Assembly (NCBI GenBank): GCA_036785375.1
Contig: JAWMAR010000023.1
Coordinates: forward strand, 12,648,001 to 12,712,000
Length of the DNA: 64,000 bases
Source of the DNA: Leucoraja ocellata
Taxonomy: Eukaryota
Direction of reading: 5' to 3'
Of the stretch, positions 3,741 to 61,679 are shown piece by piece. Positions within the stretch are counted from its first letter, which is position 1; each line of letters starts with the position of its first letter. Made by a program: the position numbers and the translations under genes. The notes below the pieces were generated by a model, which did not search any database, had not been told where the DNA came from, and was given only the letters and a program-made list of their open reading frames with translations.

Positions 3741-3825
3741 CAAATGTCCCATAACAGCTTAGTTACTCCAGCGCTTTGTCTATCTTCAATATAAAACAGC
3801 ATCTGCAGTTCCTTTGTACACGCAT

Positions 3826-8570: not shown

Positions 8571-8935
8571 AGACACAGAGTGCTGGAGTAACTCAGTGGG
8601 TCAGGCAGCATCTGTGGAGAACATGGATAGGTGACGTTTCACAGAGTGCTGGAGTAACTCAGCGGGTCAGGCAGCATCTGTGGGGAACATGGATAGGTGA
8701 TGTTTCACAGAATGCTGGAGTAACTCAGCGGGTCAGGCAGCATCTGTGGAGAACATGGATAGGTGACGTTTCACAGAGTGCTGGAGTAACTCAGCGGGTC
8801 AGGCAGCATCTGTGGGGAGAAGGAATGGGTGACGTTTCGGGTGGAGACCCTTCTTCAGACTGATGTCGGGGGAGTGGGCGGGACAGATAGAATGTAGTCG
8901 GAGACAGTAAGACCGGTGGGAGAACTGGGTTGGGG
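8571..8935 (-). repeat. Penelope terminal segment with hammerhead motif followed by a 66-bp array (~4 units)
   Basis: Reverse complement of the 66-bp unit repeated; hammerhead core at 8831-8858. Confidence 0.9.
8831..8858 (-). ncRNA. Minimal type I hammerhead ribozyme motif (intact core)
   Basis: Reverse complement reads CTGAAGA A GGGT-CTCC-ACCC GAAACGTC: CUGANGA and GAAA boxes, 4-bp stem II, GUC triplet. Confidence 0.65.
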
Positions 8936-9575
8936 ATGAGATGATATACGGTGGCGTTGAAGGCTCTGCGTGTAAATACGCAGAGACCATTCATCTACAT
9001 TCTCACGCTGTTCACTGTGAGAATCACATCGGGCCTCCCTCTCCTACATTTGCTCGCTGCTATAAACCTTCAGTGTCGGAACAATAGGCGCGAGGAGGTG
9101 GTCTTGAGGCCATGACCTGAGTAACCACAGTAAGGACAAGCTCCTGCTGTAGCTGTGGCCCACACATCCTCCCTCCCCCCAGAGCCTAGCTGCTTCTCAC
9201 ACCCCTCACTGTAGTCACGGCAACAGGGCAGTGTGGCCACAGACACACCAAGTCGTAAACTTCATTTCCTGCTTTCACACCAGACAACCTTTAGTCAAAA
9301 CCCGGCAGCATTTCAAACACACGTCAGATTCTTGTCCGATACTAATGTCACTAAATGCTGCAAACCGTTTATTACAGTCGTTCTCTGTTTAACGAGTGGC
9401 CGATCACACATGTGTGATTTATGACAGGCTGTTATCTTCAGCTAATGTCCTCCTAAACTTGGGAAAGGCCAGTGAATGGACATCTGTTACAATCCCGACT
9501 TTCCCAACCAGCAGTCCATCAATCTCCCTGCCATCTGCATTGTGTCCCATTAAGTGGCAGCTTACGTTTAACGTT

Positions 9576-9940
9576 GGATAGGTGACGTTTCACAGAGTGC
9601 TGGAGTAACTCAGCGGGTCAGGCAGCATCTATGGAGAACATGGATAGGTGACGTTTCACAGAGTGCTGGAGTAACTCAGTGGGTCAGGCAGCATCTGTGG
9701 AGAACATGGATAGGTGATGTTTCACAGAGTGCTGGAGTAACTCAGCGGGTCAGGCAGCATCTATGGAGCTAAGGAAATAGGCAACGTTTCGGGCCGAAAC
9801 CCGTAAGGGTTTCGGCCCGAAACGTTGCCTATTTCCATAAGGATTTCGGCCCCGAAACGTTGCCTATTTCCTTCGCTCCATAGATGCTGCTGCACCATAA
9901 CTCAGCGGGTCAGGCAGCATCTGTGGAGAACATCGATAGG
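9576..9940 (-). repeat. 66-bp array with fold-back cassette (~9754-9893)
   Basis: About 3 units plus inverted arms around 'ccc-gtaa-ggg', with a duplicated ~34-bp arm segment. Confidence 0.9.
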
Positions 9941-10044
9941 TTCCCACGTTATGCCTGGTGCTGCTACTGTTGTCTATCGCCCGCAATGAATGACTCGTGG
10001 CTTTGCCAGAACTCTGCTGAGTTATAATCCAGAATACCAGCGGG

Positions 10045-12829: not shown

Positions 12830-13265
12830 CTGAAGAAGAGTCCCGACCTGAAACGTCACTTGTACCTTCTGTCCACAGATGCTGCCTGACCCGCTGAGTT
12901 ACTCCAGCACTCTGTGAAACGTCACCTATCCATGTTCTCCACAGATGCTGCCTGACCCGCTGAGTTATGGTGCAGCAGCATCTATGGAGCGAAGGAAATA
13001 GGCAACGTTTCAGGCCGAACCTTCTGGAAATAGGCAACGTTTCGGGCCGAAACCCAGAAGGGTTTCGGCCTGAAATGTTGCCTATTTCCTTAGCTCCATA
13101 GATGCTGCTGCACCCGCTGAGTTACTCCAGCACTCTGTGAAACGTCACCTATCCATGTTCTCCACAGATGCTGCCTGTCCCGCTGAGTTACTCCAGCACT
13201 CTGTGAAACGTCACCTATCCATGTTCTCCACAGATGCTGCCTGACCCGCTGAGTTACTCCAGCAC
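12830..13265 (+). repeat. Hammerhead-like motif + 66-bp array + fold-back cassette (~12970-13113)
   Basis: 'ctgaagaagagtcccgacctgaaacgtc', then units and inverted arms around 'ccc-agaa-ggg'. Confidence 0.9.
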
Positions 13266-14159
13266 TTGGTATTTTGCTCTGGGATAGAGTGGGATTAGTG
13301 AATGATACTGACCAGGGATGAACCAGGCCAATCCACAAAGAACCTGAAGAATATCAATAATTATAGGCCCCCCTGTCCCAGAAACAGCAGAGAGAAGAAT
13401 CTAAAGAATCAGGAGGCTTAGAAAATGTGAAAGATAGAGGTGTGGTCTTGGCCTAGAATTACGAGAATACTTTGCCTGGTAGTATTGTGATTCATTTCAC
13501 TCTAACAATATACCCTTCTGTTCCTTTGTCCCTTGAGATCTTATCATGCTTGGTCCAAGGTGCATCGTAAATGCTGCATACGTCAACAATCCCATGTTGT
13601 GATGGGCTCCTTATTCTAACCACTACATTGTTATATATTATTTATATTTTACAAAATGCAACCAAGGTGCAGGTGTGGACCCCAGGTGAGTGGTGTGGCC
13701 TCGGGAGGGCAGTAACCCTCTGCTGCAAGGTTATTATAACCTTCATAATGAGCTTTGTGGAGACCTATTCCTTCACTTTTGTGAAACCACCGTCCTTGTT
13801 GATGAGATCTAATGGGAGAAAGTCCCAGAGCAGGAACGCAGCAGAATCTGGGCCTAGTCTCGCAGGATCACACAACAAAACCCATTCCAATGCCCAACCC
13901 ATTTCCCAGAAGGAAACACAACACTAACAACAGGGGAAAGAAAAGCAATATTGTCGATTCAGCTGGAGTTCTGTGAGCAGGGGATGTATACAGTGGATCT
14001 ACTAGCCAGCGCCCCAATCATTCTCATCCAAGACTCCAGTCGAGGTGAAAGTTCTCCAGCTGTTAAACACATTGTTCTTCAGCTTATGCAGGACTGCACA
14101 TTGTAACCCTCATTGTATTCTGCTCAAGAACATGCAATATAGAGCAGTACTGTTGTCTG

Positions 14160-16182: not shown

Positions 16183-16877
16183 TCACACGCGCACACACAC
16201 GGGCACATGGACACACACGCGCACACACGGACACAGGCACACACATACACACGCGCACACACACGGACACACACACGCACACACGGGCACACGCGCACAC
16301 ACGCGCACACACACGGGCACACACGCACACACGCGCACACACGCACACGGGCACACGCGCACACATACACACACGGACACATACACACACGCGCACACAT
16401 ATACACACACACGGACACACACACGCACACGGGCACACGCGCACACACACGAGCACACGCGCACACATACACACACGGGCACACGCGCACACACACGTAC
16501 ACACACACGCACACACATACACACGGACACACANNNNNNNNNNNNNNNNNNNNNNNNNNNNNNNNNNNNNNNNNNNNNNNNNNNNNNNNNNNNNNNNNNN
16601 NNNNNNNNNNNNNNNNNNNNNNNNNNNNNNNNNNNNNNNNNNNNNNNNNNNNNNNNNNNNNNNNNNNNNNNNNNNNNNNTACACACAGACGTACACACGC
16701 GCACACGCACACGCACGCAAGCACACACGCACACACGCGCACACACTCACACAGACACGCACACACGTACACACGCACACACACACGCCCCCCACACACA
16801 CACACGTATACACACACGTACACACGTACGTACACACGTACACAAGCACACACGTACTCACACTCACACTCACACAC
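16183..16877. repeat. CA/CG-rich microsatellite spanning an assembly gap (N 16534-16679)
   Basis: Direct inspection. Confidence 0.95.
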
Positions 16878-21970: not shown

Positions 21971-22308
21971 ACAGATGGCAGAACCAGCAACTAAACATAG
22001 AAGGCTGTCTATTATAAATCGAGCAAGTTAGGATGAGCATTTACAATAATCGACTCACTTCCACCAGGATTAGTAACTAGAAAATGAGAAGTAATTTGTT
22101 TAGCTTAATAGGGTTTAGTAGAGTTCTTCTTATCGAGTCCGCACAAGATTAGAAGTTGTTTGGCCAAAGCTGAACACACTTCTCGACATCCGCACACAAT
22201 GGTGTCTGTCTTGTTGCTTCCTGTGCATCTTGTGCGTGGTGGTGGAACGATTGGTGTAAACGGGGCCGCGATCGAGGTGAACGCTCTTTCCTTGACCCCC
22301 CCTAGTAG

Positions 22309-22603
22309 AGTTTAGTTTAGAGAAACAGCATGGAAACAAGCCCCATGGCCCACTAAACCCATGCCAACTATCGATCACCCATACACTAGTTCTATCTTAC
22401 ACACTAGGGACAAGTTACAGAAACTAATTAACCTACAAACCCGCACGTCTTTGGAATGTACGAGGAAACAAGAGCACCTGAAGAAAACCCACGTGTTCAC
22501 GGAGAGAACGTACAAACTCCGTACAGACTGCACCCGTAGTCGGGATCGAACCTGGGTCTCTGGCGCTGTGAGGCAGCAACTCCAACTCTGCGCCACCGTG
22601 TGG
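22309..22603 (-). mobile_element. HE1-like V-SINE, near full length
   Basis: Reverse-complement head 'ggatcgaacc...cgccaccgtg'. Confidence 0.9.
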
Positions 22604-23778: not shown

Positions 23779-24154
23779 CAGTCTCTCTTGAATACATCTC
23801 ACCTTGACTGCTGGATAATGTGCTGGGTGGGCAGCAAGGATCTAGGGTAGTGGGGAGGTATTTTTGTTGGAACAGCTCTGTGTGCTGAGTCGGAGTCACT
23901 CCGTCAATGTCTTGCTGTTATTTATTTCCGGGGCATCTGAGTGGTTTTTATGGAATAAGACGACTGTATTCGGCACGATGGTGGATGTGATTATAACACT
24001 CTGTGCTTTGTCATTGCCTTCTGTCAGTTTGCAATCGTTACGCTGACAGCTTGCAGACACAAAAACAAATAGCTAAAGACTAAAGAAAATGTTATTGCAA
24101 TTGAGGAACCCCCCAAAAACGTGATGCCTGTTACACATGTTTTAATAAGTAGAG

Positions 24155-24495
24155 TTCATAAGGTCATGTGACAGCAGAATTAGGCCATTCGGCCCATCGA
24201 GCCTACTCCGCCATTCAATCATGGCTGATCTATCTCTCCCTCCTAACCCGATTCTCCTGCCTTCTCCCCATAATCCCTGACACCCATACTGATCAAGAAT
24301 CTATCTATCTCTGCCTTTAAAATATCCACTGACTTGGCCTCTACAACCGTCTGTGGCAAAGAATTCCACAGATTCACCACCCTCTGACTAAAGATATTTC
24401 TCCTCATCTCCTTCCTAAAAGAATGTCCTTTAATTCTGAGGCTGTGACCTCTAATCCTAGACTCTCCCACTAGTGGAAACATCCTCTCCACATCC
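24155..24495 (-). mobile_element. CR1-like LINE 3' end
   Basis: DVERMFPLVGESRIRGHSLRIKGHSFRKEMRRNIFSQRVVNLWNSLPQ. Confidence 0.9.
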
Positions 24496-24604
24496 AAGAC
24501 AAGCACTCATCATACGTTAAGAGAGTTCCTGCCCCTGGCAATTAAAGAATATTACCTCACCTCGTAATTAGCAACTTGTGCTGTAAAATACAATGATTGA
24601 ATGT

Positions 24605-24775
24605 CTTAAGAAAGAACTGCAGATGCTGGAAAAATCGAAGGTAGACAAAAATGCTGGAGAAACTCAGCGGGTGAGGCAGCATCTATGGAGCGAAGGAAAT
24701 AGGTGACGTTTCGGGTCGAGACCCTTTTTCAGACTGAAGGGTCTCGACCCGAAACGTCACCTATTCCTTCCTCCA
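24605..24775. mobile_element. Head-to-head pair of Penelope terminal fragments joined at the hammerhead motif
   Basis: 'aggtgacgtttcgggtcgagaccc...gggtctcgacccgaaacgtcacct' inverted repeat. Confidence 0.85.
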
Positions 24776-24949: not shown

Positions 24950-25175
24950 GTCTTTCTCATTCTCACCTTCCCCTCAGCCATCAATGAACCATTCTACATT
25001 TCCTTGATCACCTTCTGCTTTGATCTGTCCGTTTCACACCTTACATTCTCTTTGTACCCATCCATATCTCGAGTTTCCCTCTCGCCCGACAGTCTGAAGA
25101 AGGGTGTAGACATGAAACGTCACCCATTCCTTCCTTCTCTCCAGAGATGCTGCCTGTCCCGCTGAGTTACTCCAG
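24950..25175 (+). mobile_element. Penelope-like 3' terminal fragment with degenerate hammerhead
   Basis: 'agtctgaagaagggtgtagacatgaaacgtcacc...gctgagttactccag'. Confidence 0.7.
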
Positions 25176-25387: not shown

Positions 25388-25544
25388 AGAATTTCAACCA
25401 GTAACCGCTACCTGTTACACATCCAGTGGAAATCCAGTGCTCAATGCCAGCATTTCCCAATGTCTGAGCCGTCTGTGACAACATGAAGCATATTGAGAAT
25501 AGTTTCAATATTTGCTATTGAACTACTCAATCAAACCTAGTGTT

Positions 25545-26040
25545 TAAGAAAGAACTGCAGATGCTGGAAATATTGAAGGTAGACAAAAATGCTGGAGAAA
25601 CTCAGTGGGTGGGGCAGCATCTATGGAGTGAAGGAATAGGTGACGTTTCGGGTCGAGACCCTTCTTCAGACTGATGTGGGGTGGGGGGGACGAGAAGAAG
25701 AAAAGAAGAGGCAGTGGGCTGTGGGAGAGCTGGGGAGGGGAAAGAGGGAGAAAGCAGGGACTACCTGAAATTGGAGAAGTCAATGTTCATACCGCTGGGG
25801 TGTAAACTACCCAAGCGAAATATGAGGTGCTGCTCCTCCAATTTGCTCTGGGACTCACTCTGGCCATGGAGGAGGCCCAGGACAGAATGGTTGGATTTGG
25901 AATGGGAAGGGGAGTTGAAGTGCTGAGCCACCAGGAGATCAGGTTGGTTATTGTGAACCGAGCGGAGGTGTTGGGCGAAGCGATCGCCAAGCCTACGCTT
26001 GGTCTCACCGATGTAGAGCAGCTGACACCTAGAGCAGCGG
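25545..26040 (-). mobile_element. Penelope-like element 3' part: GIY-YIG endonuclease end, purine/pyrimidine tract, hammerhead, tail
   Basis: IRCSRCQLLYIGETKRRLGDRFAQHLRSV...VAQHFNSPSH...EEQHLIFRLGSLHPSGMN is a PLE GIY-YIG domain. Confidence 0.92.
25642..25669 (-). ncRNA. Minimal type I hammerhead ribozyme motif in the Penelope terminal repeat
   Basis: Reverse complement CTGAAGA A GGGT-CTCG-ACCC GAAACGTC, about 90 nt downstream of the GIY-YIG stop. Confidence 0.7.
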
Positions 26041-26744
26041 ATTCCTCGATCACCTTTGATTTTTCCATCTCTCACATTGAGTCCTATTCATCTGTGGTAT
26101 GGGTGCTAATACATGTCTTTTAGGCTATTTGAGATTTTAGAAAATATTCTGATAAACCTAATAACTATTAGATTTGAGATGTGTGAGTCAGGGAGTTGTT
26201 GTCATGAAGCATGGTTTATCTTCAGCTAGTGTTAAAGATGTATTAATGTTATGGCTTTAGTTCACTAACCAGATAGTTGACGTATTTATACATCAGACTG
26301 AAGAGCTGTAACTAACTTTAGAATGTGTTACCTGTATCTGTATATCTCTGATTGAGGACTGATCCCTGGGTGATCTGTTAAACCACTGTCTTCCTCACAG
26401 GAGCTGCTTCTTGGTGCATCATTCCAATCTATCTGGTGTATGCAACTCCCCTGCAATGGACCGCCAATGACCCGCTGCTAAAGCTGCAGTGTGTCAGAAA
26501 GGAAAGGCAACTCTGTGTATGTGTCAATTACCTGAACACATCATTCAGATCAGCAGTTAATCTCAATAGCAATTTAAAAGACCATTAAATGGTCAACCAT
26601 CAGAAACAATTAAATTAAGATTCCAATGTTATTATATATCACAGCAGGTACTGTGGGCAGCTCATAGCAGAGCTGGATAATTCATGTACATCTTTGTACC
26701 TTGCTGTACCTTAGGTAACACACGTACACAAGTACCTTGAGCAA

Positions 26745-27968: not shown

Positions 27969-28226
27969 AAAACGTCACCTATCCATGTTCTCCACAGATG
28001 CTGCCTGACCCGCTGAGTTACTCCAGCACTCTGTGAAACGTCACCTATCCATGTTCTCCACAGATGCTGCCTGACCCACTGAGTTACTCCAGCACTCTGT
28101 GAAACGTCACCTATCCATGTTCTCCACAGATGCTGCCTGACCCGCTGAGTTACTCCAGCACTCTGTGAAACGTCACCTATCCATGTTCTCCACAGATGCT
28201 GCCTGACCCGCTGAGTTACTCCAGCA
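27969..28226 (+). repeat. 66-bp tandem array (~4 units)
   Basis: Near-identical units directly abutting the SINE head. Confidence 0.92.
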
Positions 28227-28702
28227 CTTTTTAAGGAAATTAAAGTCACTCTGTCTTTTACACCATTCAAGAATCTGCTCCAAATCTGTTCATCTCTCTG
28301 TGATATCTGTTCCGTCGATCTCCCACTGCCTTTATCCAAACATAACAGATTTTTCTTTCCATGGATGGCGTCTGTCCGACTGAGCTTCTCCAGCATTTTA
28401 TTTTTGATTTTTCAGATTGCTAGAATCTGTCGTTTTTTTAATATCTTCCACTTGCCTGGACACTTGAGTCGGGCCCCTGATGGGAGCAGCATGGTGCATC
28501 TTTATATGTGTTTGTGGACTATTATTCTTTCATTAAAGCACGTGACTTATGCTAGTGTTATGTTGCAACAAAGAACATTTACAGATTATTATGATTTATG
28601 GACCATTTGCCCACCTTCCTGTCAGGAATATTCTGCAGACAGACACAAAGTGCTGGAGCAACTCAGCGGGTCAGGCAGCATCTCTGGAGAGAAGGAATGG
28701 GT

Positions 28703-28730
28703 GACGTTTCGGGTCGAGACCCTTCTTCAG
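28703..28730 (-). ncRNA. Minimal hammerhead motif (intact core) in a head-to-head Penelope terminal pair (28643-28805)
   Basis: Reverse complement CTGAAGA A GGGT-CTCG-ACCC GAAACGTC. Confidence 0.65.
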
Positions 28731-29565
28731 ACATCTCGACCAGAAAAGGCCACCTATTCCTTCTCTCCAGTTTTTCGGTTTAAACCAGCATCTGCAGTTC
28801 CTTCCTCAACAGGAATATTCCGCAGCTACACATGCAATAGTCGCGACTGTCTGCTCAGCTACTTTCCCGCTGTTTGTCTTTGCAAAGAGGCAGTCACATT
28901 CCTACAAACTTAAACACAGTGAGTTTCTCAGCCCGTGGTCCCAGGCAAAACCGGACAAGGAGTTCCCCAACATCGAGGCACCTGCTGGCAGCACCGGGCA
29001 AGGAGGATATGTGCAGCGCTCCGTATACTGGCATGGTCCATGGTCCATGGCCCTGGGGTTAGTCAGGACTGCTACACACACACCAACATGGCAGTGTCAG
29101 CATGATCAATTACTCTACAATCTGAGCAACAGCTGGAGCCAAGGAATTGGAGGAATCTCTCTCTTATTTTCTAATCAAGGCTTTACTTAATAAAATAAGC
29201 CCAGAACAAGACAGATATCAACATGATTTAATATTTTCTGTTTCCTGTCACTCGTTACAATTGCGTTCAACGTTGCTGAGTTGTAAATGATGTGGGTGAG
29301 GAATCTGAAGTAAATATGCATAGTCATACATGGAGAGTTCTCTGGTTGGACATGTCTCGAATCTTCCAATGATCCATGCAGGTCAGGAAGGAGCTGATTG
29401 ACAGCTACGATTAGCCCTGGTCTTACATCTACCTGTGCTGGGTCTGGAAAGGAGAATGTCCAAATGCTACGGACCATTTGGTGACCATTCGGCTCAAGAG
29501 GTCCAGTGCTCGTACCCCAAATCAACTTACTCTCTTCCAGGACCCAATACATCACCTGTGCATTC

Positions 29566-29671
29566 CCTCCACAGATGCTGCCTGACCCGCTGAGTTACTC
29601 CAGCACTCTGTGAAACGTCACCTATCCATGTTCTCCACAGATGCTGCCTGACCCGCTGAGTTACTCCAGCA
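29566..29671 (+). repeat. 66-bp array (~1.6 units)
   Basis: Same unit and junction 'cactctgtgaaacgtc'. Confidence 0.85.
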
Positions 29672-29736
29672 CTTTACTCCAGCACTCCAGCTGCTGTTCC
29701 GTGTGTCTTCCTTCCTCCAATCTCCAATTGTAACAG

Positions 29737-33399: not shown

Positions 33400-33722
33400 G
33401 CACACATGCACACATGCACACATGCACACTTGCTGCACACATGCACACATGCACACGTGCACACTTGCTGCACACTTGCTGCCCCTCCCTGAACAGTGCC
33501 ACAGGTGACCGCTGCTGACTGCTGCTGACCTCTGCTGACCACTGGTGACCTCTGGTGACCTCTGGTGACCTCTGGTGACCGCAAGTGACCACTGATGACC
33601 ACTGGTGACCTCTGATGACCACTGGTGACCACTGGTGACCGCTGGTGACTGCTGGTGACCACTGGTGACCGCTGGTGACTGCTGGTGACCACTGGTGACC
33701 ACTGGTGACTTCGTTGGTCACC
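33400..33722. repeat. (cacacatg)n followed by a 10-bp minisatellite (ctggtgaccW), about 22 units
   Basis: Direct inspection. Confidence 0.92.
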
Positions 33723-34929
33723 ATCATCTAGATAAATAAACATTGATGATCCACGAGATGTGCGGGTGTTGAGGTAGCTGGGCTCTGAGCTCATGTAACA
33801 CGAGTGACTGCCTTCATTCCGACCTCTGTAATACATTCCACTCTCACTTATGCCACAGGCTCACCTTCCCCTCAATGTGTTGATGTATTATTGCAGATGG
33901 CCTGGCCACAAGGGAGCCTCTGACACAGCTTCCAAAGTTGCCTAATGTAACTGGCTGCTGTGCTGTGCCTGCACACAAACTGTTCACACCACACATCACT
34001 GAGCAAGTATTTCCTCTGATGGGGGAAAATCAAGAACAGAAAGACATTATCTCAAAATGAGAGCCAAACGGTTTGGGATTGAAGTCACTGCAGTAAAATT
34101 CTAAACATGAGAACTACAATGTAAGATTTAAAATCAAATGCAATGTGTTCTCAGTCCAAGAGCTTTCACTGTCGGAATTCCAGACAGTAGCACAGCACAG
34201 TGGGAAGAAATGAATAAAACGCTGGCTTAGACATTGGCTCAGATCAAAACCATTGCTGTCCTTTTACAGGTGAGTGCAACAGGTCCTGACAAACTTTCAC
34301 ATAAGACTGAGGTTATTTTAGTCTCAATGCTCCTCAAAGAGAAAAGACTATCAGATCTTTAATATGGCGCCTAGTTTTGCCTCTTTTACAAACTGTTACA
34401 TGTGGAGTTATAGATTGTAGAACAAATTGTGGGTTGGGTCGAACAGATTCTACTCCGCAGATTGGTCCAAAATCAGAAAACATCAGAAGCAATTTCCACG
34501 CATGATTTTTGGACCCAAAATGGTTTGAGTGAAATAAGTTCCAATCTATCCAGTAGCTTGCAACGGATTCTAAATGTAAATGACCATTGGTGTCTATGAG
34601 TGGTGACGTAGTCATATCCTTGTTCTCACTAGTTAATCTGATTATGCCCCAACAACTGAGGAAGATTCGACCATGGAGCCAAGCTTATCTGTGAAACGTT
34701 TCATCCATTGACAGCCACTACTGCTGTGAAGAGCCGTGACTACTCTGGCTGGTCTCGAGCGGATCGATATCATGGTACTGACTGAGGCTGCCGGCACTAC
34801 AACACAACCAGTAAATCCATCATCTCAGGCTCCTCTAGAAACTAAACCAGCGCTTTGGCAGAGATATGGCCTCCAGTTGCTGCCATGGTAAAGGAGTTGT
34901 ACCTGCAATAGTTGCTGCACTCTACCGCT

Positions 34930-35205
34930 CAGTTTAGTTTAGTTTATTGTCACGTGTGCTGAGACAGTGAAAAGCTGTTGTTGCATGCTGACCAGTCAGT
35001 GGAAAGATAATACATGATTACAATCGAGCCGTTTACAGTGTACAGATACATGATAAAGGGAATAATGTTTAGCGCAAGGTGAAGCCAGTAAGTTCCAATC
35101 AAAGATAGTCCGAGGGTCTCCAATGGGGTAGATAGTAGTTCAGGACTGCTCTCTACTTGGTGAGAGGGCAGCTGAGAAGAAACTGTCCCTGAATCTGGGG
35201 GTGTG
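34930..35205 (-). mobile_element. Rex1/Babar-like LINE 3' end
   Basis: Reverse complement of the tail and 'gaagaaactgtccctgaatctg'. Confidence 0.8.
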
Positions 35206-35367
35206 CAAATTTCTTATCGAGTTTCAGTAACATCGGTTCCTGACAGGACACTCGACAAAGGGACCCGGCCATCTAATTAGATCGGTATTGGACTTCAGAG
35301 AAACTAAACATCACAACAGGTTTATATAGATATAAACGCTCTGTGAGGTACAATGAACTGCGAAAAC

Positions 35368-35775
35368 AGACACAGAGTGCTGGAGTAACTCAGCAGGTCA
35401 GGCAGCATCCGTGGAGAACATGGATAGGTGACGTTTCACAGAGTGCTGGAGTAACTCAGCGGGTGCAGCAGCATCTGTGGAGAACATGGATAGGTGACGT
35501 TTCACAGAGTGCTGGAGTAACTCAGCGGGTGCAGCAGCATCTATGGAGGGAAGGAAATAGGTAACGTTTCGGGCCGAAACCCTTCCGGGTTTCGGCCCGA
35601 AACGTTGCCTATTTCCAGAAGAGTTTCGGCCCGATACGATGCTGGTTCAATATGATGATGGACACAAAGTGCTGGAGTAACTCAGCGGGTCAGGCAGCAT
35701 CTGTGGAGAACATGGATAGGTGACGTTTCACAGAGTGCTGGAGTAACTCAGCAGGTCAGGCAGCATCTGTGGAGG
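35368..35775 (-). repeat. 66-bp array with truncated fold-back cassette (~35530-35635)
   Basis: Units on both sides; inverted arms around 'ccc-ttcc-ggg'. Confidence 0.88.
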
Positions 35776-36351: not shown

Positions 36352-36716
36352 NNNNNNNNNNNNNNNNNNNNNNNNNNNNNNNNNNNNNNNNNNNNNNNNN
36401 NNNNNNNNNNNNNNNNNNNNNNNNNNNNNNNNNNNNNNNNNNNNNNNNNNNNNNNNNNNNNNNNNNNNNNNNNNNNNNNNNACACANNNNNNNNNNNNNN
36501 NNNNNNNNNNNNNNNNNNNNNNNNNNNNNNNNNNNNNNNNNNNNNNNNNNNNNNNNNNNNNNNNNNNNNNNNNNNNNNNNNNNNNNNNNNNNNNNNNNNN
36601 NNNNNNNNNNNNNNNNNNNNNNNNNNNNNNNNNNNNNNNNNNNNNNNNNNNNNNNNNNNNNNNNNNNNNNNNNNNNNNNNNNNNNNNNNNNNNNNNNNNN
36701 NNNNNNNNNNNNNNNN
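36352..36716. other. Assembly gap
   Basis: Run of N (5 called bases inside). Confidence 1.
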
Positions 36717-37988: not shown

Positions 37989-38155
37989 CCCTCACCTGTA
38001 CAGGGGCCAATTAACCCCTCACCTGTACAGTGGCCGATTAACCCCTCACCTGTACAGTGGCCAATTAACCCCTCACTTGTACAGGGGCTGATTAACCCCT
38101 CACCTGTACAGGGGCTGATTAACTCCTCACCTGTACACAGGGGCTGTTTAACCCC
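37989..38155. repeat. 27-bp minisatellite (ttaacccctcacctgtacagKggcYRa), about 6 units
   Basis: Direct inspection. Confidence 0.9.
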
Positions 38156-38417: not shown

Positions 38418-38625
38418 ACACCTTGGACAGGTGAAGCCATGGTGTGCATCCACCTTGGACAGGTGAGGACACAGTGTCCACCCACATTGGACAGGTGAGC
38501 TGCAACAGCAGTGCCTACGCACCTTGGACAGGTGAAGCCACGTGTGCACCCACCTGGGACAGGTGTAGCTGCAGTGTGCATTCACCTAGGACAGGTGAAG
38601 CCGCAGTGTCAACCCACCTGGGTCA
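38418..38625. repeat. Degenerate ~32-bp minisatellite with palindromic core CACCT-tggac-AGGTG
   Basis: About 6 copies of 'caccttggacaggtg'. Confidence 0.85.
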
Positions 38626-38748: not shown

Positions 38749-38941
38749 NNNNNNNNNNNNNNNNNNNNNNNNNNNNNNNNNNNNNNNNNNNNNNNNNNNN
38801 NNNNNNNNNNNNNNNNNNNNNNNNNNNNNNNNNNNNNNNNNNNNNNNNNNNNNNNNNNNNNNNNNNNNNNNNNNNNNNNNNNNNNNNNNNNNNNNNNNNN
38901 NNNNNNNNNNNNNNNNNNNNNNNNNNNNNNNNNNNNNNNNN
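38749..38941. other. Assembly gap
   Basis: Run of N. Confidence 1.
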
Positions 38942-40134: not shown

Positions 40135-40230
40135 TGCTATCATTTATCAGGGGCCCACTTGCCATCCCTTGCTATCACTTCATCAGGGTCCCACTTGCCA
40201 TCCCTTGCTATCACTTTATCAGGGTCCCAC
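40135..40230. repeat. Short tandem duplication, ~36-bp unit x2.5
   Basis: 'atcagggKcccacttgccatcccttgctatcactt' repeated. Confidence 0.8.
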
Positions 40231-44573: not shown

Positions 44574-45093
44574 CTGGTTCACCTGTATCTCCTCCAACCT
44601 CATCTACTGCAACCGCTGCTCTAGATGTCAGCTGATTTACATCGGGGAGACTAAGCGGAGGTTGGGCGATCGTTTCGCCAAACACCTCCGCTCAGTCCGC
44701 AATAACCAACCTGACCTCCCGGTGGCTCAGCACTTCAACTCCCCCTCCCATTCCCAATCCGACCTCTGTCCTGGGTCTCCTCCATTGCCAGAGTGAGCAA
44801 CACCGGAAATTGGAGGAACAGCATCTCATATTCCGCCTGGGTTGCTTGCGTCCGGATGGCATGAACGTTGAATTCTCCCAGTTTTGCTAGCCCTTGCTGT
44901 CTCCTCCCTTCCTTAACCCTCGAGCTGTCTCCTCCCATCCCCCCGCCCTCGGGCTCCTCCTCCTCCCTTTTTCCTTCCTCCCCCCCCCCACCCCCCATCA
45001 GTCTGAAGAAGGGTTTCGGCCCTAAACGTTGCCTATTTCCTTCGCTCCATAGATGCTGCTGCACCCGCTGAGTTTCTCCAGCATTTTTGTGTA
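44574..45093 (+). mobile_element. Penelope-like element 3' part (GIY-YIG, C-rich tract, hammerhead variant at 45003-45030, tail)
   Basis: FTCISSNLIYCNRCSRCQLIYIGETKRRLGDRFAKHLRSV...VAQHFNSPSH, then 'ctgaagaagggtttcggccctaaacgttgcc' (G12>U in this copy). Confidence 0.92.
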
Positions 45094-45450
45094 TTGCCGA
45101 CTGAAGGCCTGTTTCTGTGCTGTGTTATAGATTTTGTTTGTTTTTGTTTTACAGATACAGGGCGGAAACTGGCCCTTCGGCCCGCCAAGTGCAGGCTGTA
45201 CCCGTAGTCGGGATCGAACCCGCGTCTCTGGCAGCAACTCTACCACTGCGCCACCATGCCACCCTTCAATAGTCTATGTTCTGGCTGCTTGTATAATCAG
45301 AACCATATTATTATCAATGCCGGTGTGGAGTCCTTCCCCCCCCCCCGGGCAATCGTATGATGGTTTCACAGGCAGCGGTAAATTCCAGATGATCCTGATG
45401 ATAACTCTCAGCTATCTCACGGTTAGTGTGACTGACTTACATTGTTCCAG

Positions 45451-48222: not shown

Positions 48223-49416
48223 CATGATTACCATGGCCTTGCAAGCAATATTTCAGTAACAACCTTTGAGTAACAATCTTTGAGTGTAGAACATAAATAA
48301 AACACATAAATGCACAGGGGTTGTTTTTCCATCTTGAAACTGTTGCCCTTTCATCCCACGCTGTGTCTCTAATCTCCTGAACCGTGCCCTTCTGGTTTAC
48401 ACAGCTACAGAAATGGAGACTGGTTTTCAGTGGAAGTGTGTTACCATATTCGCAGTTCCTTCCCTTCAGATGTGGCAAACACTAGGTATCATGTGACTCA
48501 AATCTTTCCATTACTGAATAAATTCTTGTTGTTACAGATTTGGGGAAAATTGTATCTCGTGATCATTCTGATATTTTATTTTCATTTGGTCTGCGGGATC
48601 ATGTGTCTACAGAAATCATTCTATTGGTGTTGAAACTCTCAATCACAGACAAAAGCCTCTTGTTTCTGTCTTCACATAAATAATAGAAGCAAGAGAGACA
48701 TCGTGTGATTTACGTTTCTGGTGATAGTGATCCTCACCTCGACACAACTTACTGCCAAGCCTCAACATCTGCTGTCGAAGAGTCAATAGATCCTGAATGT
48801 TCTCAACGGCCAGGTATGCACAGACTTAGCAGGTGGACAATGCCAAATATTATTATGAATAAAAGAGGTTTTCTTCATGAAGGTCCACTTGTACTGAGAG
48901 ATGCCTCTAGTCCAAGAGGAGACTGACTCCAGCATCTACTCCACCAGTCTCTAGCTGAATCCCAGCTGTCACAGTGAGGTCACCACTCATTCTTTACCAA
49001 CCAGAAGCCAGTATGACTACATCACTCTTCGAATGACAAGCTCAGGAATGAACCATCAACATATCTGCACGTTATTGAGGAAGTTCCTCAATCTTTCCTC
49101 AAGTATCAAGAGCACATTGGTCAGTTTGTTCTTTGTTGCCATTAGAAGAGCACTTGTGGATAACCTGACTGCTGTTGGTCAAAATCAGTAAAAAGCAAGA
49201 ATTTGATCCTTGAGTTTCACAGAAAAGCTTCTCTCCGCGAGGCAGTCTAAGCTTAAACTGACACAGGCAATCCTGTTGATAAAAGTCAAAGTTAACCTGT
49301 AACAGTCACCTCTTAAAGGCACGAAGATGACGTACAGTGCCTTTGTTTGGAAACCAACATCTGCAGTTCCTTGTGTAGGGAACAACTGCAGATGTTGCTT
49401 TAAATAGACAACCAGT

Positions 49417-50060
49417 CTGAAGAAGGGTCTCGACATGAAACGTCACCTATCCATGTTCTCCACAGATGCTGCCTGACCCGCTGAGTTACTCCAGCACTCT
49501 GTGAAACGTCACCTATCCATGTTCTCCACAGATGCTGCCTGACCCGCTGAGTTACTCCAGCACTCTGTGAAACGTTACCTATCCATGTTCTCCACAGATG
49601 CTGCCTGACCCACTCAGTTATGGTGCAGCAGCATCTATGGAGCTAAGGAAATAGGCAACGTTTCGGGCCAAAATCCTTCTGGAAATAGGCAACGTTTTGG
49701 GCCGAAACCCTTAAGGGTTTCGGCCCGAAATGTTGCCTATTTCCTTAGCTCCATAGATGCTGCCTGACCCGCTGAGTTACTCCAGCACTCTGTGAAACGT
49801 CACCTATCCATGTTCTCCACAGATGCTGCCTGACCAGCTGAGTTACTCCAGCACTCTGTGAAACGTCACCTATCCATGTTCTCCACAGATGCTGCCTGAC
49901 CCGCTGAGTTACTCCAGCACTCTGTGAAACGTCACCTATCCATGTTCTCCACAGATGCTGCCTGACCCGCTGAGTTACTCCAGCACTCTGTGAAATGTCA
50001 CCTATCCATGTTCTCCACAGATGCTGCCTGACCCGCTGAGTTACTCCGGCACCCTGTGTC
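49417..50060 (+). repeat. Longest composite: hammerhead motif + ~3 units + fold-back cassette (~49628-49762) + ~4.5 units of the 66-bp repeat
   Basis: Begins 'ctgaagaagggtctcgacatgaaacgtc' and runs directly into the array. Confidence 0.93.
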
Positions 50061-50364
50061 TATCTGCAGTTCCTTGTTCCTACAATGCAAGAGGCACTCC
50101 CAAGTTCCAGGGGAGGCTGGTGAATGGATGGCTGTTGGAGCAGTGGGTGCGGAGAGGTGATGGGGAGACAGTTCACCGCAGTTATGTAATGCTGGGTACA
50201 AACACTTTGGGAGTTTTACCGTCCGACTGACTGCTATCCAATGTCAGATCATTTAGAGTAGTATTTATGTGAACTCGATGACCTTGTTCCAGAATCCTGG
50301 CACAGACACATATTTCAGAAATGCTTTCTACAGAATAAACCCCCTTCGACAACAAGTATATGAC

Positions 50365-50492
50365 GTGTAGGAAGGAACTGTAGATGCTGGTTTACACCGT
50401 AGATAAACACAAAACGCTGGAGTAACTCAGCGGGACAGGCAGCATCTATGGAGCGAAGGAAATAGGCGACGTTTCGGGCCGAAATCCTTCTC
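50365..50492 (-). mobile_element. Solo Penelope terminal fragment
   Basis: 'aggaactgtagatgctgg...gacgtttcgggccgaaatccttc'. Confidence 0.75.
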
Positions 50493-50877
50493 AAACATGT
50501 TGGTCAGCATGTGCAACAGCTACAGATACAGAAGAGATACAGCTCTTCGCCCCACAGAATCCACTCCAACCAGTGATCACCCCAACATTAATACTATCCT
50601 ACACACTAGGACCAATGTACAGAGGCCAATCCACCCACAAACCTGCACGTCTTTGGAGNNNNNNNNNNNNNNNNNNNNNNNNNNNNNNNNNNNNNNNNNN
50701 NNNNNNNNNNNNNNNNNNNNNNNNNNNNNNNNNNNNNNNNNNNNNNNNNNNNNNNNNNNNNNNNNNNNNNNNNNNNNNNNNNNNNNNNNNNNNNNNNNNN
50801 NNNNNNNNNNNNNNNNNNNNNNNNNNNNNNNNNNNNNNNNNNNNNNNNNNNNNNNNNNNNNNNNNNNNNNNNNNNNN

Positions 50878-51992
50878 GTGTCTCTGTGACTGTGTCTCTG
50901 TGTCTCTGTGTCTCTGTGTCTCTGTGACTGTGTATCTGTNNNNNNNNNNNNNNNNNNNNNNNNNNNNNNNNNNNNNNNNNNNNNNNNNNNNNNNNNNNNN
51001 NNNNNNNNNNNNNNNNNNNNNNNNNNNNNNNNNNNNNNNNNNNNNNNNNNNNNNNNNNNNNNNNNNNNNNNNNNNNNNNNNNNNNGTTACTGTGTCTCTG
51101 TGTCTCTGTGTCTCTGTGACTGTGTGTCTCTGTGTCTCTGTGTCTCTGTGTCTCTGTGTCTCTGTGACTGTGTGTCCCTGTGTCTCTGTGTATCTCTGTG
51201 TCTCTGTGTCTCTGTGTCTCTGTGTCTCTGTGTCTCTGTGACTGTGTCTCTGTGTCTCTGTGTCTCTGTGTCTCTGTGTCTCTGTGACTGTGTCTCTGTG
51301 TCTCTGTGACTGTGTCTCTGTGTCTCTGTGTCTCTGTGTCTCTGTGACTGTGTATCTGTNNNNNNNNNNNNNNNNNNNNNNNNNNNNNNNNNNNNNNNNN
51401 NNNNNNNNNNNNNNNNNNNNNNNNNNNNNNNNNNNNNNNNNNNNNNNNNNNNNNNNNNNNNNNNNNNNNNNNNNNNNNNNNNNNNNNNNNNNNNNNNNNN
51501 NNNNNNNNNNNNNNNNNNNNNNNNNNNNNNNNNNNNNNNNNNNNNNNNNNNNNNNNNNNNNNNNNNNNNNNNNNNNNNNNNNNNNNNNNNNNNNNNNNNN
51601 NNNNNNNNNNNNNNNNNNNNNNNNNNNNNNNNNNNNNNNNNNNNNNNNNNNNNNNNNNNNNNNNNNNNNNNNNNNNNNNNNNNNNNNNNNNNNNNNNNNN
51701 NNNNNNNNNNNNNNNNNNNNNNNNNNNNNNNNNNNNNNNNNNNNNNNNNNNNNNNNNNNNNNNNNNNNNGTGACTGTGTCTCTGTGTCTCTGTGTCTCTG
51801 TGTCTCTGTGTCTCTGTGTCTCTGTGACTCTGTGTCTCTGTGTCTCTGTGTCTCTGTGACTGTGTCTCTGTGACTGTGTCTCTGTGTCTCTGTGACTCTG
51901 TGACTGTGTCTCCGTGACTGTGTCTCTGTGACTCTGTGTCTCTGTGACTCTGTGTCTCTGTGTCTCTGTGTCTCTGTGTCTCTGTGTCTCTG
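50878..51992. repeat. (ctctgtgt)n 8-bp satellite interrupted by assembly gaps
   Basis: Direct inspection; N runs at 50659-50877, 50940-51085 and 51360-51769. Confidence 0.95.
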
Positions 51993-52865: not shown

Positions 52866-53158
52866 AGACGCAGAGTGCTGGAGTAACTCAGCGGGTCAGG
52901 CAGCATCTGTGGAGAACATGGATAGGTGACGTTTCACAGAGTGCTGGAGTAACTCAGCGGATCAGGCAGCATCTGTGGAGAACATGGATAGGTGACGTTT
53001 CACAGAGTGCTGGAGTAACTCAGCGGGGTCAGGCAGCATCTGTGGTGAACATGGATAAGGTGACGTTTCACAGAGGTGCTGGAGTAACTCAACGGGTCAG
53101 GCAGCATCTGTGGAGAACATGGATAGGTGACGTTTCAGTTTGGGACGTTGCTTCAGAC
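52866..53158 (-). repeat. 66-bp array (~4 units) with degenerate hammerhead at its start
   Basis: Reverse-complement units; ends 'gacgtttcagtttgggacgttgcttcagac'. Confidence 0.9.
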
Positions 53159-54404
53159 CAATCAGTCGAACACAAGGAGGTAATGTTTTAATGTAACCAT
53201 TAAAGATAGTATTGGAGGACAGAAGTTTTGGACATTACTTGCTGTGCCTCAGGATAATATGTGGTGGAATTTTGAGTGTTACTGCAAGCAGCACAGGAAC
53301 CTCCATGACACCAAGTGGTCAGCCCAGAATTGGGAGACACTGGGCCTCAAGTTGGGGAAAGGATGGAGGCAATGAGTCATTGAAGTTCCTCAACGTAGAC
53401 ACAATCTGTGTGAATATTTCATCAGGAAGAGGAGCTTTAAAATTCGAGCCTGACTTTTAGACATAAAATAACGGGATAGCATTGCGATGGGATTAGCAAC
53501 TAGTGTAGAATTCTGGATTAGTACGGGGGTCAAAGGTCATGGGGAGAAGGCAGGAGAATGGCGGAGTAGACTCGAATGGCCGAATGGACAAATTCTGCTC
53601 CTATCACTTATGAAGGGATTTCCTCCCAACCTGCTGTCAGTTCCACTGCATGCAACAGACTTTATTTCTAGGCAATGTTTTGTGTCGGGAATCTACTTCT
53701 TAATAATGCCCTGAGCCTAAACGTTACCTATCTATTCCCTCCACAGATGCTGCCTGACCCATTGAGTTCTTCCAGCACTCTGTATTGGCTCTAGATTCCT
53801 GCTCTACAGTTCCATGTGTCTCCTTGCTTTGTGAACTACTGCACTTGTTGGCTTGCCTCTCACCAGGAGCACAGTTTGAAAATTCCTCACACAAATTTCT
53901 GACTGTTTAAGACAATGGTTGGAAAATCACGCACAGGAATTTCTGACATCTGGGCTCAGCAGGTGAGATTCCCACTGGGGGTTGGAAGGAATAAATAACC
54001 AATGTGCTGAATGCTACTCGAGAGGAGAGCATGACGTGCCTTCATAAATGAGTTTAGCCGACATGCCATGAACATTGCCGGAGTTAGTAAGTTGGGTGCT
54101 AATTTGAGCAGAACTGGGGAATATTATCAGGCTCCTGCCTTGGGGCAAAGGTTCAGATCCATGCTGGGCCGGGCCGGGCTGGGAGTCTCCTACGAATGAA
54201 CTTTGTAAAGGTGCTACAAGGTCCATGGGATCTTGGCAGCTTCGAGAGCTTGATACAGTTGCCATGGAAGAGGAGAACCATTCACTGGTGCAGAGGGTAC
54301 AAGAGTTATTCAGGCAGTAACTCCGACATCCATACAGCCCTTTGGCCCATCATGTCCATGCCCACCACCGCGCTCATCTGGACAACTCACACGTATCAGA
54401 GACT

Positions 54405-54855
54405 CAGAGTCACAAAGTGATACCGTGTGGAATCAGGCCCTTCGGCCCAACTTGCTCATGCCGGCCCACAAGTCCCAGCTACACTAGTCCCACCTGCCTG
54501 TGTTTGGCCCGCATCCCTCCAAGCCTGTCATATCCATGTATCTATCTAATGTTTCCTAAACATTGGGATAATCACTGCCTCAACGACCTCCTCCGGCAGC
54601 TCCTTCCATACACCCACCACCTTTTATGTAAACAAAATACTCCTCAGGTTCCTAATAAATCTTTCCCCCTCTCCTTAAACCTCTGGTTCTTGATTCTGCT
54701 ATTCTGCGCAAGAGACTGCATTTATCTGATCTATTCCTCTCATGGTTTTGTACACCTCTATAAGATCGCCCCCTCAGACCCAGCCCGCCCCAACCTCACC
54801 CTATAGCTCAGGCCCTCGAGTCCTGGCAACATCCTTGTGGATCTTCCCTGCACCC
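54405..54855 (-). mobile_element. CR1-like LINE 3' end (second subfamily)
   Basis: Reverse complement matches the 30.0 kb and 46.7 kb copies. Confidence 0.85.
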
Positions 54856-54929: not shown

Positions 54930-55078
54930 CTGAAGAAAGGTCTCGACCCAACACGTCACCTATTCCTTCTCTCCAGAGATGCTGCCTGACCCGCTGAGTT
55001 ACTCCAGCACTCTGTGAAACGTCACCTATCCACGTTCTCCACAGATGCTGCCTGACCCGCTGAGTTACTCCAGCACTC
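54930..55078 (+). repeat. Degenerate hammerhead + 66-bp array (2 units)
   Basis: 'ctgaagaaaggtctcgacccaacacgtc' followed by units. Confidence 0.85.
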
Positions 55079-55247
55079 ACTCTGTGTCACACATCTACTC
55101 CAGTTGCACCTGGGGTTGTGGCACATGTTGCCTGGTTACTGCATGGGAACAGGCTCTTTGGTCCATCAAGTCCACAATGACCATCAGCCACCCATTCCTA
55201 CAATTCTAATACTAATCTAACCCAACTTTATTCTTCCCATGGTGACA

Positions 55248-55750
55248 TAAGGAACTGAAGATGTTGGAATCGAGAGTTAAACATGCAGTGCTGGAGTAAC
55301 TCAGCGAGTCAGACAGCATCAGTGAAGGGAATGGATGGGCGATGTTTTGAATCAAGACCCTTCTTCAGACTGGAGAAGGATCCCGGCCTGAAACGTCACC
55401 TATCCATGTTCTCCACAGATGCTGCCTGACCCGCTGAGTTACTCCAGCACTCTGTGAAACGTCACCTATCCATGTTCTCCACAGATGCTGCCTGACCCAC
55501 TCAGTTTATGGTGCAGCAGCATCTATGGAGCTAAGGAAATAGGCAACGTTCGGGCCAAAATCCTTCTGGAAATAGTCAACGTTTTGGGCCGAAACCCTTA
55601 CGGGTTTCGGCCCGAAACGTTGCCTTATTTCCTTAGCTCCATAGATGCTGCCTGACCCGCTGGGTTACTCCAGCACTCTGTGAAACGTCACCTATCCATG
55701 TTCTCCACAGATACTGCCTGACCCGCTGAGTTACTCCAGCACTCTGTGTC
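55248..55750 (+). repeat. Head-to-head Penelope termini + 66-bp array + fold-back cassette (~55517-55651)
   Basis: Inverted arms around 'ccc-ttac-ggg'; same junctions as the 3.9 kb and 49.6 kb copies. Confidence 0.9.
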
Positions 55751-56494: not shown

Positions 56495-56593
56495 CATTAC
56501 AGGTACATTACAGGTACATTACAGGTACATTACAGGTACATTACAGGTACATTACAGGTACACTACAGGTACATTACAGGTACATTACAGGTA
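56495..56593. repeat. 11-bp minisatellite (cattacaggta), about 9 units
   Basis: Direct inspection. Confidence 0.95.
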
Positions 56594-60565: not shown

Positions 60566-60975
60566 TGAATGGAGTCGAGGGGGGAGGTAAAGCGACAAGT
60601 GTAGCAACTCTTGTGGTTGCAAGGGAAAGAGATGCAACACTTGTCCCTTCACCTCCCCCCTCGACTCCGTTCAAGGACCCAAGCAGTTGTTCCAGGTGAG
60701 GCAGAGGTTCACCTGCACCTCCTCCAACCTCATCTATTGCATCCGCTGCTCTAGATGTCAGCTGATCTACATCGGTGAGACCAAGCGTAGGCTTGGCGAT
60801 CGTTTCGCCGAACACCTCCGCTCGGTCCGCATTAGCCAACCTGATCTCCCGGTGGCTCAGCACTTCAACTCCCCCTCCCATTCCGTCTCCGACCTCTCTG
60901 TCCTGGGTCTCCTCCATGGCCAGAGTGAGCAGCACCGGAAATTGGAGGAACAGCACCTCATATTCCGTCTGGGCA
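60566..60975 (+). mobile_element. Penelope-like GIY-YIG fragment with a 5' inverted segment (60566-60629)
   Basis: CNTCPFTSPLDSVQGPKQLFQVRQRFTCTSSNLIYCIRCSRCQLIYIGETKRRLGDRFAEHLRSV...EEQHLIFRLG, uninterrupted. Confidence 0.92.
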
Positions 60976-60976
60976 C

Positions 60977-60993
60977 GGCGCCATCTAGTTGGC
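60977..60993 (-). promoter_or_regulatory. CTCF-like motif
   Basis: Reverse complement GCCAACTAGATGGCGCC. Confidence 0.4.
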
Positions 60994-61192
60994 AATCTCC
61001 GCAGTACAAATAGAAATTAAGGAAACGGTCTTTGAAAAGGCACGAAAATCTGCCATTCTCCAATTCACTGTCACTACAAAATCAAGACAGGAACCTTCTG
61101 AAAATAATAGACCAACTATGCACTTAAAACTAGTCTTTAAAATAACCTATCATAATCCTCAATAAATATTAAAGATGCTTTCTTGTTTTAGT

Positions 61193-61679
61193 GTGCTGGA
61201 GTAACTCAGCGGGTGGGTCAGGCAGCATCTGTGGAGAACATGGATAGGTGACGTTTCACATAGTGCTGGAGTAACTCAGCAGGTGCAGCAGCATCTATGG
61301 AGCTAAGGAAATAGGCAACGTTTCGGGCCGAAACCCGGAAGGGTTTCGGCCCGAAACGTTGCCTATTTCCAGAAGGGTTTCGGCCCGAAACGTTGCCTAT
61401 TTCCTTAGCTCCATAGATGCTGCTGCACCATAACTCAGCGGGTGGGTCAGGCAGCATCTGTGGAGAACATGGATAGGTGACGTTTCACAGAGTGCTGGAG
61501 TAACTCAGTGGGTCAGGCAGCATCTGTGGAGAACATGGATAGGTGACGTTTCACAGAGTGCTGGAGTAACTCAGTGGGTCAGGCAGCATCTGTGGAGAAC
61601 ATGGATAGGTGACGTTTCACAGAGTGCTGGAGTAACTCAGTGGGTCAGGCAGCATCTGTGGAGAACATGGATAGGTGAC
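61193..61679 (-). repeat. 66-bp array with near-perfect fold-back cassette (61283-61428)
   Basis: Arms 'gtgcagcagcatctatggagctaaggaaataggcaacgtttcgggccgaaaccc' and its reverse complement; loop 'ggaa'. Confidence 0.93.

Follow-up and report, generated by a model that had tools for sequence, protein, structure and literature searches.

The window analysed here, a stretch of 64,000 nucleotides from the skate Leucoraja ocellata, contains a family of short tandem arrays whose 66-bp unit is the body of a Penelope-like element (PLE) terminal repeat (pLTR). Each unit spans the stretch between GAAAC and the pLTR 3′ end, and units are joined head-to-tail via one common junction. One array lineage took in a sister (B-type) pLTR folded back head-to-head, and the array and this cassette were then copied between unlinked sites. 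The family is best explained as a non-autonomous, ribozyme-less derivative of the terminal repeat of a Neptune/Nematis-type PLE.

Results

Arrays of the 66-bp unit occupy twelve loci

A preliminary description of this DNA reported 66-bp units, an inverted cassette and more units at seven loci. All seven were found in our repeat survey of the window by BLAST and nhmmer (Table 1), with between less than one and four units on either side of the cassette, as were five further 66-bp arrays that lack the cassette and had been missed. The 12 array loci total 4065 bp, or 6.5% of the 62.5 kb of the window outside its N gaps, and stand beside 30 non-array pLTR pieces. Since five arrays have no cassette, it is the array that spreads, with the cassette carried as a passenger. 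At 35.5 kb, a 5′-truncated cassette with its array seems to divide the tail of a second array in two. At the 49.6-kb locus, a 16-nt tail stretch found upstream of the head recurs directly after the array. The head of this copy (49417-49436) has a two-base change in stem II in common with an unrelated solo pLTR (25094-25113), consistent with an older sub-lineage.

Segmental duplication was rejected as the origin of the loci, whose flanks have in common only other dispersed repeats or pLTR pieces. A MITE or foldback DNA transposon was likewise rejected: the inverted repeat is internal, the ends are variable, and there are no terminal inverted repeats with a target-site duplication (TSD).

The window also carries unrelated single-locus minisatellites with periods of 10-36 (33499-33709, 37989-38155, 38419-38609, 40135-40230 and 56495-56593) and four other dispersed families with 18, 12, 12 and 5 pieces, SINE/LINE-tail-like by eye (24152-24496, 22308-22600, 34929-35206 and 54397-54770). 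A tRNA scan of the window found none. No host gene was recognized among 270 ORFs compared with Pfam, which returned only GIY-YIG and weak DUF/Mpv17 matches. A candidate short host exon at 48687-48812, ending AG/GTATG, matched neither Pfam nor PDB sequences.

Table 1. Arrays, PLE fragments and parts of the 49.6-kb locus (positions within the window)
Feature	Position	Strand	Remarks
PLE 3′ end	44576-45094	+	frameshifted GIY-YIG, 3′UTR, B-type pLTR (same subfamily as cassette arms)
PLE endonuclease fragment	60591-61010	+	CX4CxxC linker and CCHH motif
PLE 3′ end	25533-26060	-	intact minimal-hammerhead pLTR and tail
Composite locus	49417-50060	+	2.8 units, inverted cassette, then 4 units
Composite copy	3824-4170	+	no head; 2 bp 3′ of older pLTR with tail (3757-3821)
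Composite copy	9575-9941	-	no head; starts at GUC cleavage position, ends mid-unit; no adjoining old pLTR
Composite copy	12830-13266	+	lies in an older pLTR; head old, first unit chimaeric, loop flipped
Composite copy	35369-35774	-	short array with tail, then 5′-truncated cassette and array; loop flipped
Composite copy	55370-55750	+	mutated head; head-to-head with old inverted pLTR (55230-55376)
Composite copy	61190-61679	-	no head; preceded by inverted tail fragment (by eye only)
Cassette-less array	8572-8858	-	PLE 3′UTR, near-intact head, chimaeric first unit
Cassette-less array	27970-28228	+	no head either
Cassette-less two-unit array in old pLTR	29546-29686 (array 29549-29673)	+	13-bp duplication at 3′ junction
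Cassette-less array	52867-53156	-	head strongly diverged
Cassette-less two-unit array in old pLTR	54930-55078	+	11-bp direct repeat around old head, array and old end
Older pLTR tail piece and inverted tail piece (18-nt arms)	49351-49410	.	upstream of head
pLTR head, read as resident	49417-49436	+	CUGAAGA core, stem II mismatched: degraded minimal hammerhead
Left array, 2.8 units of 66-bp pLTR body	49437-49620	+	GAAAC to pLTR 3′ end; no catalytic core
Array/cassette junction common to copies	49616-49643	+	28-nt match
Inverted B-type pLTR arm, outer copy	49622-49680	-	5′-truncated directly after CTGA
Inner copy of 34-bp duplication, left arm	49681-49710	-	
4-nt hairpin loop TTAA	49711-49714	.	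both orientations occur among copies
Right arm: B-type pLTR body merging into array sequence	49715-49793	+	
Right array, 4 units	49794-50060	+	terminates at pLTR 3′ end
pLTR tail remnant	50062-50077	+	

The unit derives from a PLE terminal repeat

The PLE origin proposed in the preliminary description is borne out by pLTRs attached to GIY-YIG 3′ ends within the window, by elasmobranch PLE homologues, and by the linker and CCHH motif. Three PLE ends are present, all of them 5′-truncated (44.6, 60.6 and 25.5 kb). The fragments at 44.6 and 25.5 kb terminate in the repeat, which identifies it as the pLTR. Two of the three ends were scanned with Pfam and matched GIY-YIG with E values of 8e-4 and 1.5e-4, both slightly below the curated cut-off. 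The best homologue of the 60.6-kb fragment was a Leucoraja erinacea protein (73%), followed by proteins of whale shark, Mobula, zebra shark and others (27 matches). Alignment of this fragment with named elasmobranch proteins revealed the CX4CxxC linker upstream of GIY-YIG and the CCHH motif. A CX2-5CxxC linker and CCHH mark Neptune/Nematis PLEs (PMC8557442), and we read the subtype as Neptune/Nematis, the window containing no reverse transcriptase (RT) that would tell Neptune from Nematis. An intact PLE ORF was not found in the window, and the composites have no coding capacity for RT-EN.

When 35 bodies were placed in a tree, those of the cassette arms grouped with the B-type pLTR of the 44.6-kb element (98/98; bootstrap not fully converged), and the 12 array units formed a group of their own (84/86); these support values are rough. 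Directly 5′ of the hammerhead core, the PLE-attached pLTRs have a polypyrimidine tract followed by CAG (44960-45003, plus strand; 25670-25720, minus strand). This arrangement resembles a 3′ splice site at helix I, such as has been reported for Penelope of D. virilis (PMC4209133).

The cassette was assembled once and then copied

The junction between array and cassette was said to be kept in six of the seven copies. Indeed, the 28-nt junction gave six matches with up to two mismatches, five of them exact, and none in 100 shuffles. The copy at 55.5 kb has an extra T, and the junction is absent at 35.5 kb, as had been stated. The duplication of ~34 bp, previously ascribed to all copies, is complete in six of the seven (32 bp at 13.0 kb), and at 35.5 kb all but the last ~19 nt of the first copy is missing. 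The three variants described as private to the copies at 3.9, 49.6 and 55.5 kb are all common to these, and one of them (C>T, alignment column 128) also occurs at 9.8 kb.

The cassette arms are 51 nt long and 94% complementary, with the 34-bp duplication in the left arm, and the cassette folds with z = -13 as DNA or RNA, and with -120 kcal/mol as RNA for 201 nt. The hairpin loop reads TTAA at 49.6 kb and TTAT, TTAC, TTAC, TTCC, GGAA and AGAA in the other six copies. Loop orientation thus flips between TTCC at 61.3 kb and GGAA at 35.5 kb, and the AGAA loop at 13.0 kb reverse-complements the TTCT that the first 34-bp copy still has. Inversion of a 4-nt loop is a known outcome of template switching (PMC8794818).

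Eight variable characters of the cassette yielded 28 pairs, of which 24 were compatible (permutation mean 12, P = 0.0003). The copies group as (((49.6, 55.5), 3.9), 9.8) versus (13.0, 35.5, 61.3), an arrangement that does not track position. The nested variants indicate that the cassette was built once and then copied, which upholds the earlier proposal of a single assembly copied as a block. Two characters conflict: one stems from 4 bp duplicated at 61.3 kb, the second from an arm base that came to pair with the opposite arm. PLE insertions typically contain head-to-head pLTR palindromes (PMC3846280), and we infer that an ordinary inverted pLTR pair became embedded in one array.

The 4-bp duplication is found at 61.3 kb (minus strand) both in the unit left of the cassette (61193-61257) and in the last right unit (61431-61486), pointing to local conversion across the palindrome. 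The window also contains ordinary, older head-to-head pLTR pairs (24594-24775, 28587-28817 and 55230-55390), whose junctions are unlike that of the cassette and represent independent 5′ inversions. A cassette older than the arrays was not supported by the non-CpG differences (11/812 versus 19/~2240, P = 0.22).

Beyond the window, the cassette-spanning reading frame had no protein relative. A search of 1.84 billion representatives for the cassette gave 13 weak matches, none better than E 3.7e-10 and none across the cassette, and these were set aside. As expected of shark/ray DNA, neither the cassette in plasmids nor the array junction in GTDB genomes yielded a match.

The copied part contains no ribozyme core

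The composite had been termed hammerhead-anchored and retrozyme-like. However, neither the units nor the cassette of any of the seven composites contain a CUGANGA core on either strand. The unit omits CUGANGA and stem II, and the cassette arms begin directly after CTGA. Heads are absent from four of the seven composites; at 13.0 and 49.6 kb stem II is mismatched, and at 55.5 kb the core is broken. Minimal type I hammerheads with the features given in PMC4209133 are intact in the solo pLTRs at 25669, 28730 and 47503 and near-intact at 8858. Rfam detected no family at gathering score in the window, missing the intact minimal hammerheads as well, and at E ≤ 10 it returned only sub-threshold generic hairpin matches for 49300-50600. 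The arrays resemble retrozymes in being tandem, non-coding and pLTR-related. Retrozymes, however defined by complete type I hammerheads in two or more consecutive units, require a core in the repeat, and a window-wide scan found no core in array units. Lacking a ribozyme core, the copied part is neither hammerhead-anchored nor a retrozyme.

A ribozyme borrowed by forming a pseudo-dimer of the head and a downstream unit was not supported, this fold lying 13.5 kcal/mol (8.6 kb) and 25 kcal/mol (49.6 kb) above the minimum fold at the two loci tried, although PLE hammerheads are described as weak and protein-assisted (PMC4209133, PMC11167929). The 66-bp unit itself retains the palindromic helix III and the cleavage triplet, and of the five arrays without a head, four begin close to the GUC site, at unit positions 2-9. 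These two features, together with the common junction and the nested variants, are what one might expect of the discrete, hammerhead-bearing composite envisaged in the preliminary description, moving in retrozyme fashion via self-cleaved or circular RNA. We consider such an entity improbable in view of the seven core-less bodies, the absent or damaged heads, the differences between the heads of sister copies (see below), the unfavourable pseudo-dimer fold, and the five arrays without a cassette.

Young units lie between heads and tails that look older

The array units differ from one reference unit in 48 of 2384 columns (2.0%). The mean pairwise difference is 16% among solo pLTR bodies (n = 15) and 24% among array heads (n = 6). 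In the sister copies at 49.6 and 55.5 kb, 5 of 20 head positions differ versus 7 of 213 core columns (P = 0.0015). In neither of the two remaining head pairs did head and core differ significantly (P = 0.17 and 0.24). In four of the seven headed arrays, the first unit has 26 differences in 106 positions at unit positions 1-27, and none in 140 at positions 28-62. At positions 28-62, the solos have 54 differences in 515, versus 0/140 in the four first units (P = 2e-6), and the last units have 1/140. The test is strong, not clean, since the four chimaeric first units were picked after their 5′ differences had been seen and 3 of the 15 solos have at most one difference at positions 28-62. With chimaeric first units and young last units, the old body looks replaced rather than split. 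Older pLTR sequence adjoins 9 of the 12 arrays (10 with one judged by eye) at a background of 7.6% (P = 6e-6 allowing both ends), a count that treats the heads as resident. Taken together, these comparisons suggest that heads and tails are residents of their sites and that young sequence took the place of the old body between them.

The 3′ ends of 11 of the 12 arrays fall at unit positions 59-69, that is, where tail-less solo pLTRs end; with ends set by eye, this was reached in 0 of 200,000 simulations. The 9.8-kb copy ends at unit position 17, and the arrays at 9.8 and 28.0 kb have no adjoining old pLTR. No TSD bounds the young sequence at any of the 12 arrays. The longest flanking repeats, 11 bp at 54.9 kb and 16 bp at 49.6 kb, also bracket the old head, and the former encloses old head, array and end (99th percentile of the null about 10). 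TSDs are optional in PLEs (PMC3846280). Duplications of 13 bp at 29.5 kb and 4 bp at 54.9 kb occur at 3′ junctions. With variable outer ends and unit numbers and no TSD around young sequence, the claim of a discrete unit is not supported.

Possible routes: copying by PLE proteins or conversion at the DNA level

The reading that we prefer, and to which we would give an even chance, is that array RNA serves as a template for the PLE reverse transcriptase/endonuclease, which writes it into resident pLTRs through joins guided by homology. The PLE protein would nick at or near resident pLTRs or tails, and reverse transcription would begin inside the array RNA, at any unit end. The cDNA would then be joined to the upstream old body through homology, or be truncated. 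The cassette would ride along, with loop flips and arm corrections arising from ordinary template switching at the palindrome. An array that offers an RT start site at each unit end predicts a fixed 3′ phase and a variable unit count. In the anole PLE, RT starts internally at sites bounding the tail and does not need hammerhead cleavage, and its own pLTR has been suggested as a nicking site; recognition by the D. virilis PLE endonuclease requires the tail (all PMC11167929). The 3′ junction duplications at 29.5 and 54.9 kb and the 5′-truncated copy in a tail at 35.5 kb also count in favour of PLE-driven copying.

Several observations stand against it, namely the young sequence without TSDs, the end of the 9.8-kb copy, and the position of the 9.8- and 28.0-kb arrays away from old pLTRs. 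Furthermore, the anole RT started in vitro at a site non-homologous to the cut DNA (PMC11167929). Among 16 distinct cassette substitutions, there are no A>G and one T>C changes; the lack of A>G despite a very stable hairpin means that no editing trace of an RNA stage is left.

Non-allelic gene conversion at the DNA level is possible too, if doubtful. Here, an old solo pLTR would break, either spontaneously or through the PLE endonuclease, and be repaired from an array elsewhere without any RNA, and the repair would capture several units plus any cassette lying between. Retention of both the old head and the old end around a replaced body fits this explanation, as do the 11-bp repeat around head, array and end at 54.9 kb and the lack of a young TSD. 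The loop inversion (TTCC versus GGAA), the arm homoplasy (4 of 28 pairs incompatible) and the homopolymer indels at 9.8, 52.9 and 55.5 kb resemble repair-synthesis errors (PMC8794818, 10.1101/2023.08.09.552703). Conversion accounts for the old ends, flipped loops and homopolymer indels no less well than PLE copying does, but poorly for how frequent the arrays are. Old/young hybrids of such kind are known for Alu (PMC8230782), and donors are plentiful with arrays making up 6.5% of the window. However, no more than 66 bp of homology are available, with a divergence of 10-25%, whereas the optimum for conversion lies at 89-100% identity, and the Alu screen reported only 98 cases (both PMC8230782). 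At 35.5, 9.8 and 28.0 kb, moreover, the joins lack homology. Twelve arrays beside 30 other pLTR pieces, with homology so short and diverged, favour a targeted enzyme. The fixed 3′ end does not separate the two explanations, since old 3′ ends kept by DNA conversion would have the same 3′ phase, and the window alone cannot separate PLE copying from DNA conversion.

A tandem junction in Rhinoraja longicauda

In sequences from beyond the window, the array's single open frame found matches in two NCBI gene models, both from the skate Rhinoraja longicauda and located on sequences of 70.7 and 89.2 Mb (2 among 8000 scored candidates). CCSAP isoform X2 ends in two units including the tandem junction, and AMD1 isoform X4 contains part of one unit with no clear junction. 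Both isoforms have antisense array units as coding sequence in predicted exons, reflecting either exonisation or annotation error. Read back from the peptide, the CCSAP units seem to have old-type residues at both outer ends, which suggests the same hybrid pattern. The accessible text of the Rhinoraja longicauda genome paper makes no mention of Penelope.

These matches bear on the question of an assembly artefact, in which gaps at old pLTRs would have been filled from a collapsed repeat graph, pasting in consensus arrays and a fold-back chimaera. The window has seven N gaps of 130-410 nt (16534-16679, 36352-36716, 38749-38941, 50659-51769), several within simple repeats, suggesting a short-read or gap-filled assembly. 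Gap filling can yield old ends with a near-consensus middle, PLE structures trouble short-read assembly (PMC8557442), and the cassette junction was not found beyond the window. Against this stands the pattern of variation: 15 of 35 substitutions in units fall on 4 of 66 sites, a CpG bias (P = 6e-10, recurrent variants not being independent), and the cassette differs at 11/123 CpG versus 11/812 other sites. The nested variants are unordered by position, and at 61.3 kb, variants private to the locus recur to the left and the right of the cassette. The tandem junction in the Rhinoraja longicauda gene model likewise argues for real structures, provided that its assembly is separate from that of the window. 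We therefore regard an artefact as very unlikely, while unit counts could be misassembled.

Discussion

Every part of the composite has its source in EN+ PLEs of the Neptune/Nematis kind. Head-to-head inverted pLTRs, a junction palindrome, 5′ truncation, partial tandems and an optional tail of 30-40 bp are standard traits of these elements (PMC3846280, PMC8557442). The skate composite differs from them in that it has no ORF and that its inversion lies inside the element and is passed on as a block instead of being remade at each insertion. Moreover, its repeat unit is only 66 bp long and has no hammerhead core.

Metazoan non-LTR retrozymes are similar in forming non-coding, dispersed, short tandem arrays derived from pLTRs with few units per locus, but they carry a type I hammerhead in each unit, and their units are mostly 170-400 nt long, with families of 51-972 bp (PMC7229834; bioRxiv 10.64898/2026.07.22.740005). 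The published retrozyme pipeline relies on two consecutive complete hammerheads and would miss the core-less skate units; the families in this 2026 preprint include one chondrichthyan (bioRxiv 10.64898/2026.07.22.740005). MRC1-type elements of Chlamys are also non-autonomous, head-to-tail and multicopy, with a 3′ end similar to that of an autonomous family (PMC8557442). They belong to another clade and host, and neither replacement of older copies nor an internal fold-back is described for them in the available text of PMC8557442. Alu-to-Alu conversion generates comparable hybrids at resident sites, with an old 5′ and a young 3′ part, whereas it is rare and adds no units (PMC8230782). CRM1TR and CRM4TR are likewise tandem repeats born from a terminal repeat, yet they show little or no movement between loci, in contrast to the skate units and cassette, which are common across the 12 array loci (PMC3648361).

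Tandem repeats derived from pLTRs (retrozymes, MRC1) and from LTRs (PMC3648361) are thus already known, and the skate 66-bp repeat may be catalogued already, though without such an analysis. Our literature search covered titles and the beginnings of abstracts, with most subscription papers outside its scope, and found no account of a ribozyme-less pLTR array replacing older copies, nor of the skate family. The accessible part of PMC3681739 adds nothing further on self-targeting.

The arrays can tentatively be viewed as a homing-like parasite of PLEs. The ribozyme-less pLTR multimer would serve as an array of RT loading sites that the PLE RT/GIY-YIG protein writes into existing pLTRs genome-wide, overwriting their bodies and gaining at each site the resident head, along with any upstream promoter. 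If this is true, the arrays would be in vivo evidence that PLE endonucleases target their own repeats. They would also mark a route from one retrotransposon terminus to a dispersed, exonisable minisatellite family with long hairpins. Each cassette is a palindrome of more than 50 bp and, as we infer, could yield dsRNA or fragile sites.

PLE target choice and the origin of tandem and inverted structures have been described as unresolved (PMC8557442), and the array offers a way to test the former. If the density in the window holds even partly elsewhere, there would be thousands of old/young junctions, and genomes alone could then reveal how targets are chosen, where RT initiates internally and how homology guides the joining. 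Hammerhead-based screens would overlook tandem families of this class, which derive from a pLTR and spread with no ribozyme.
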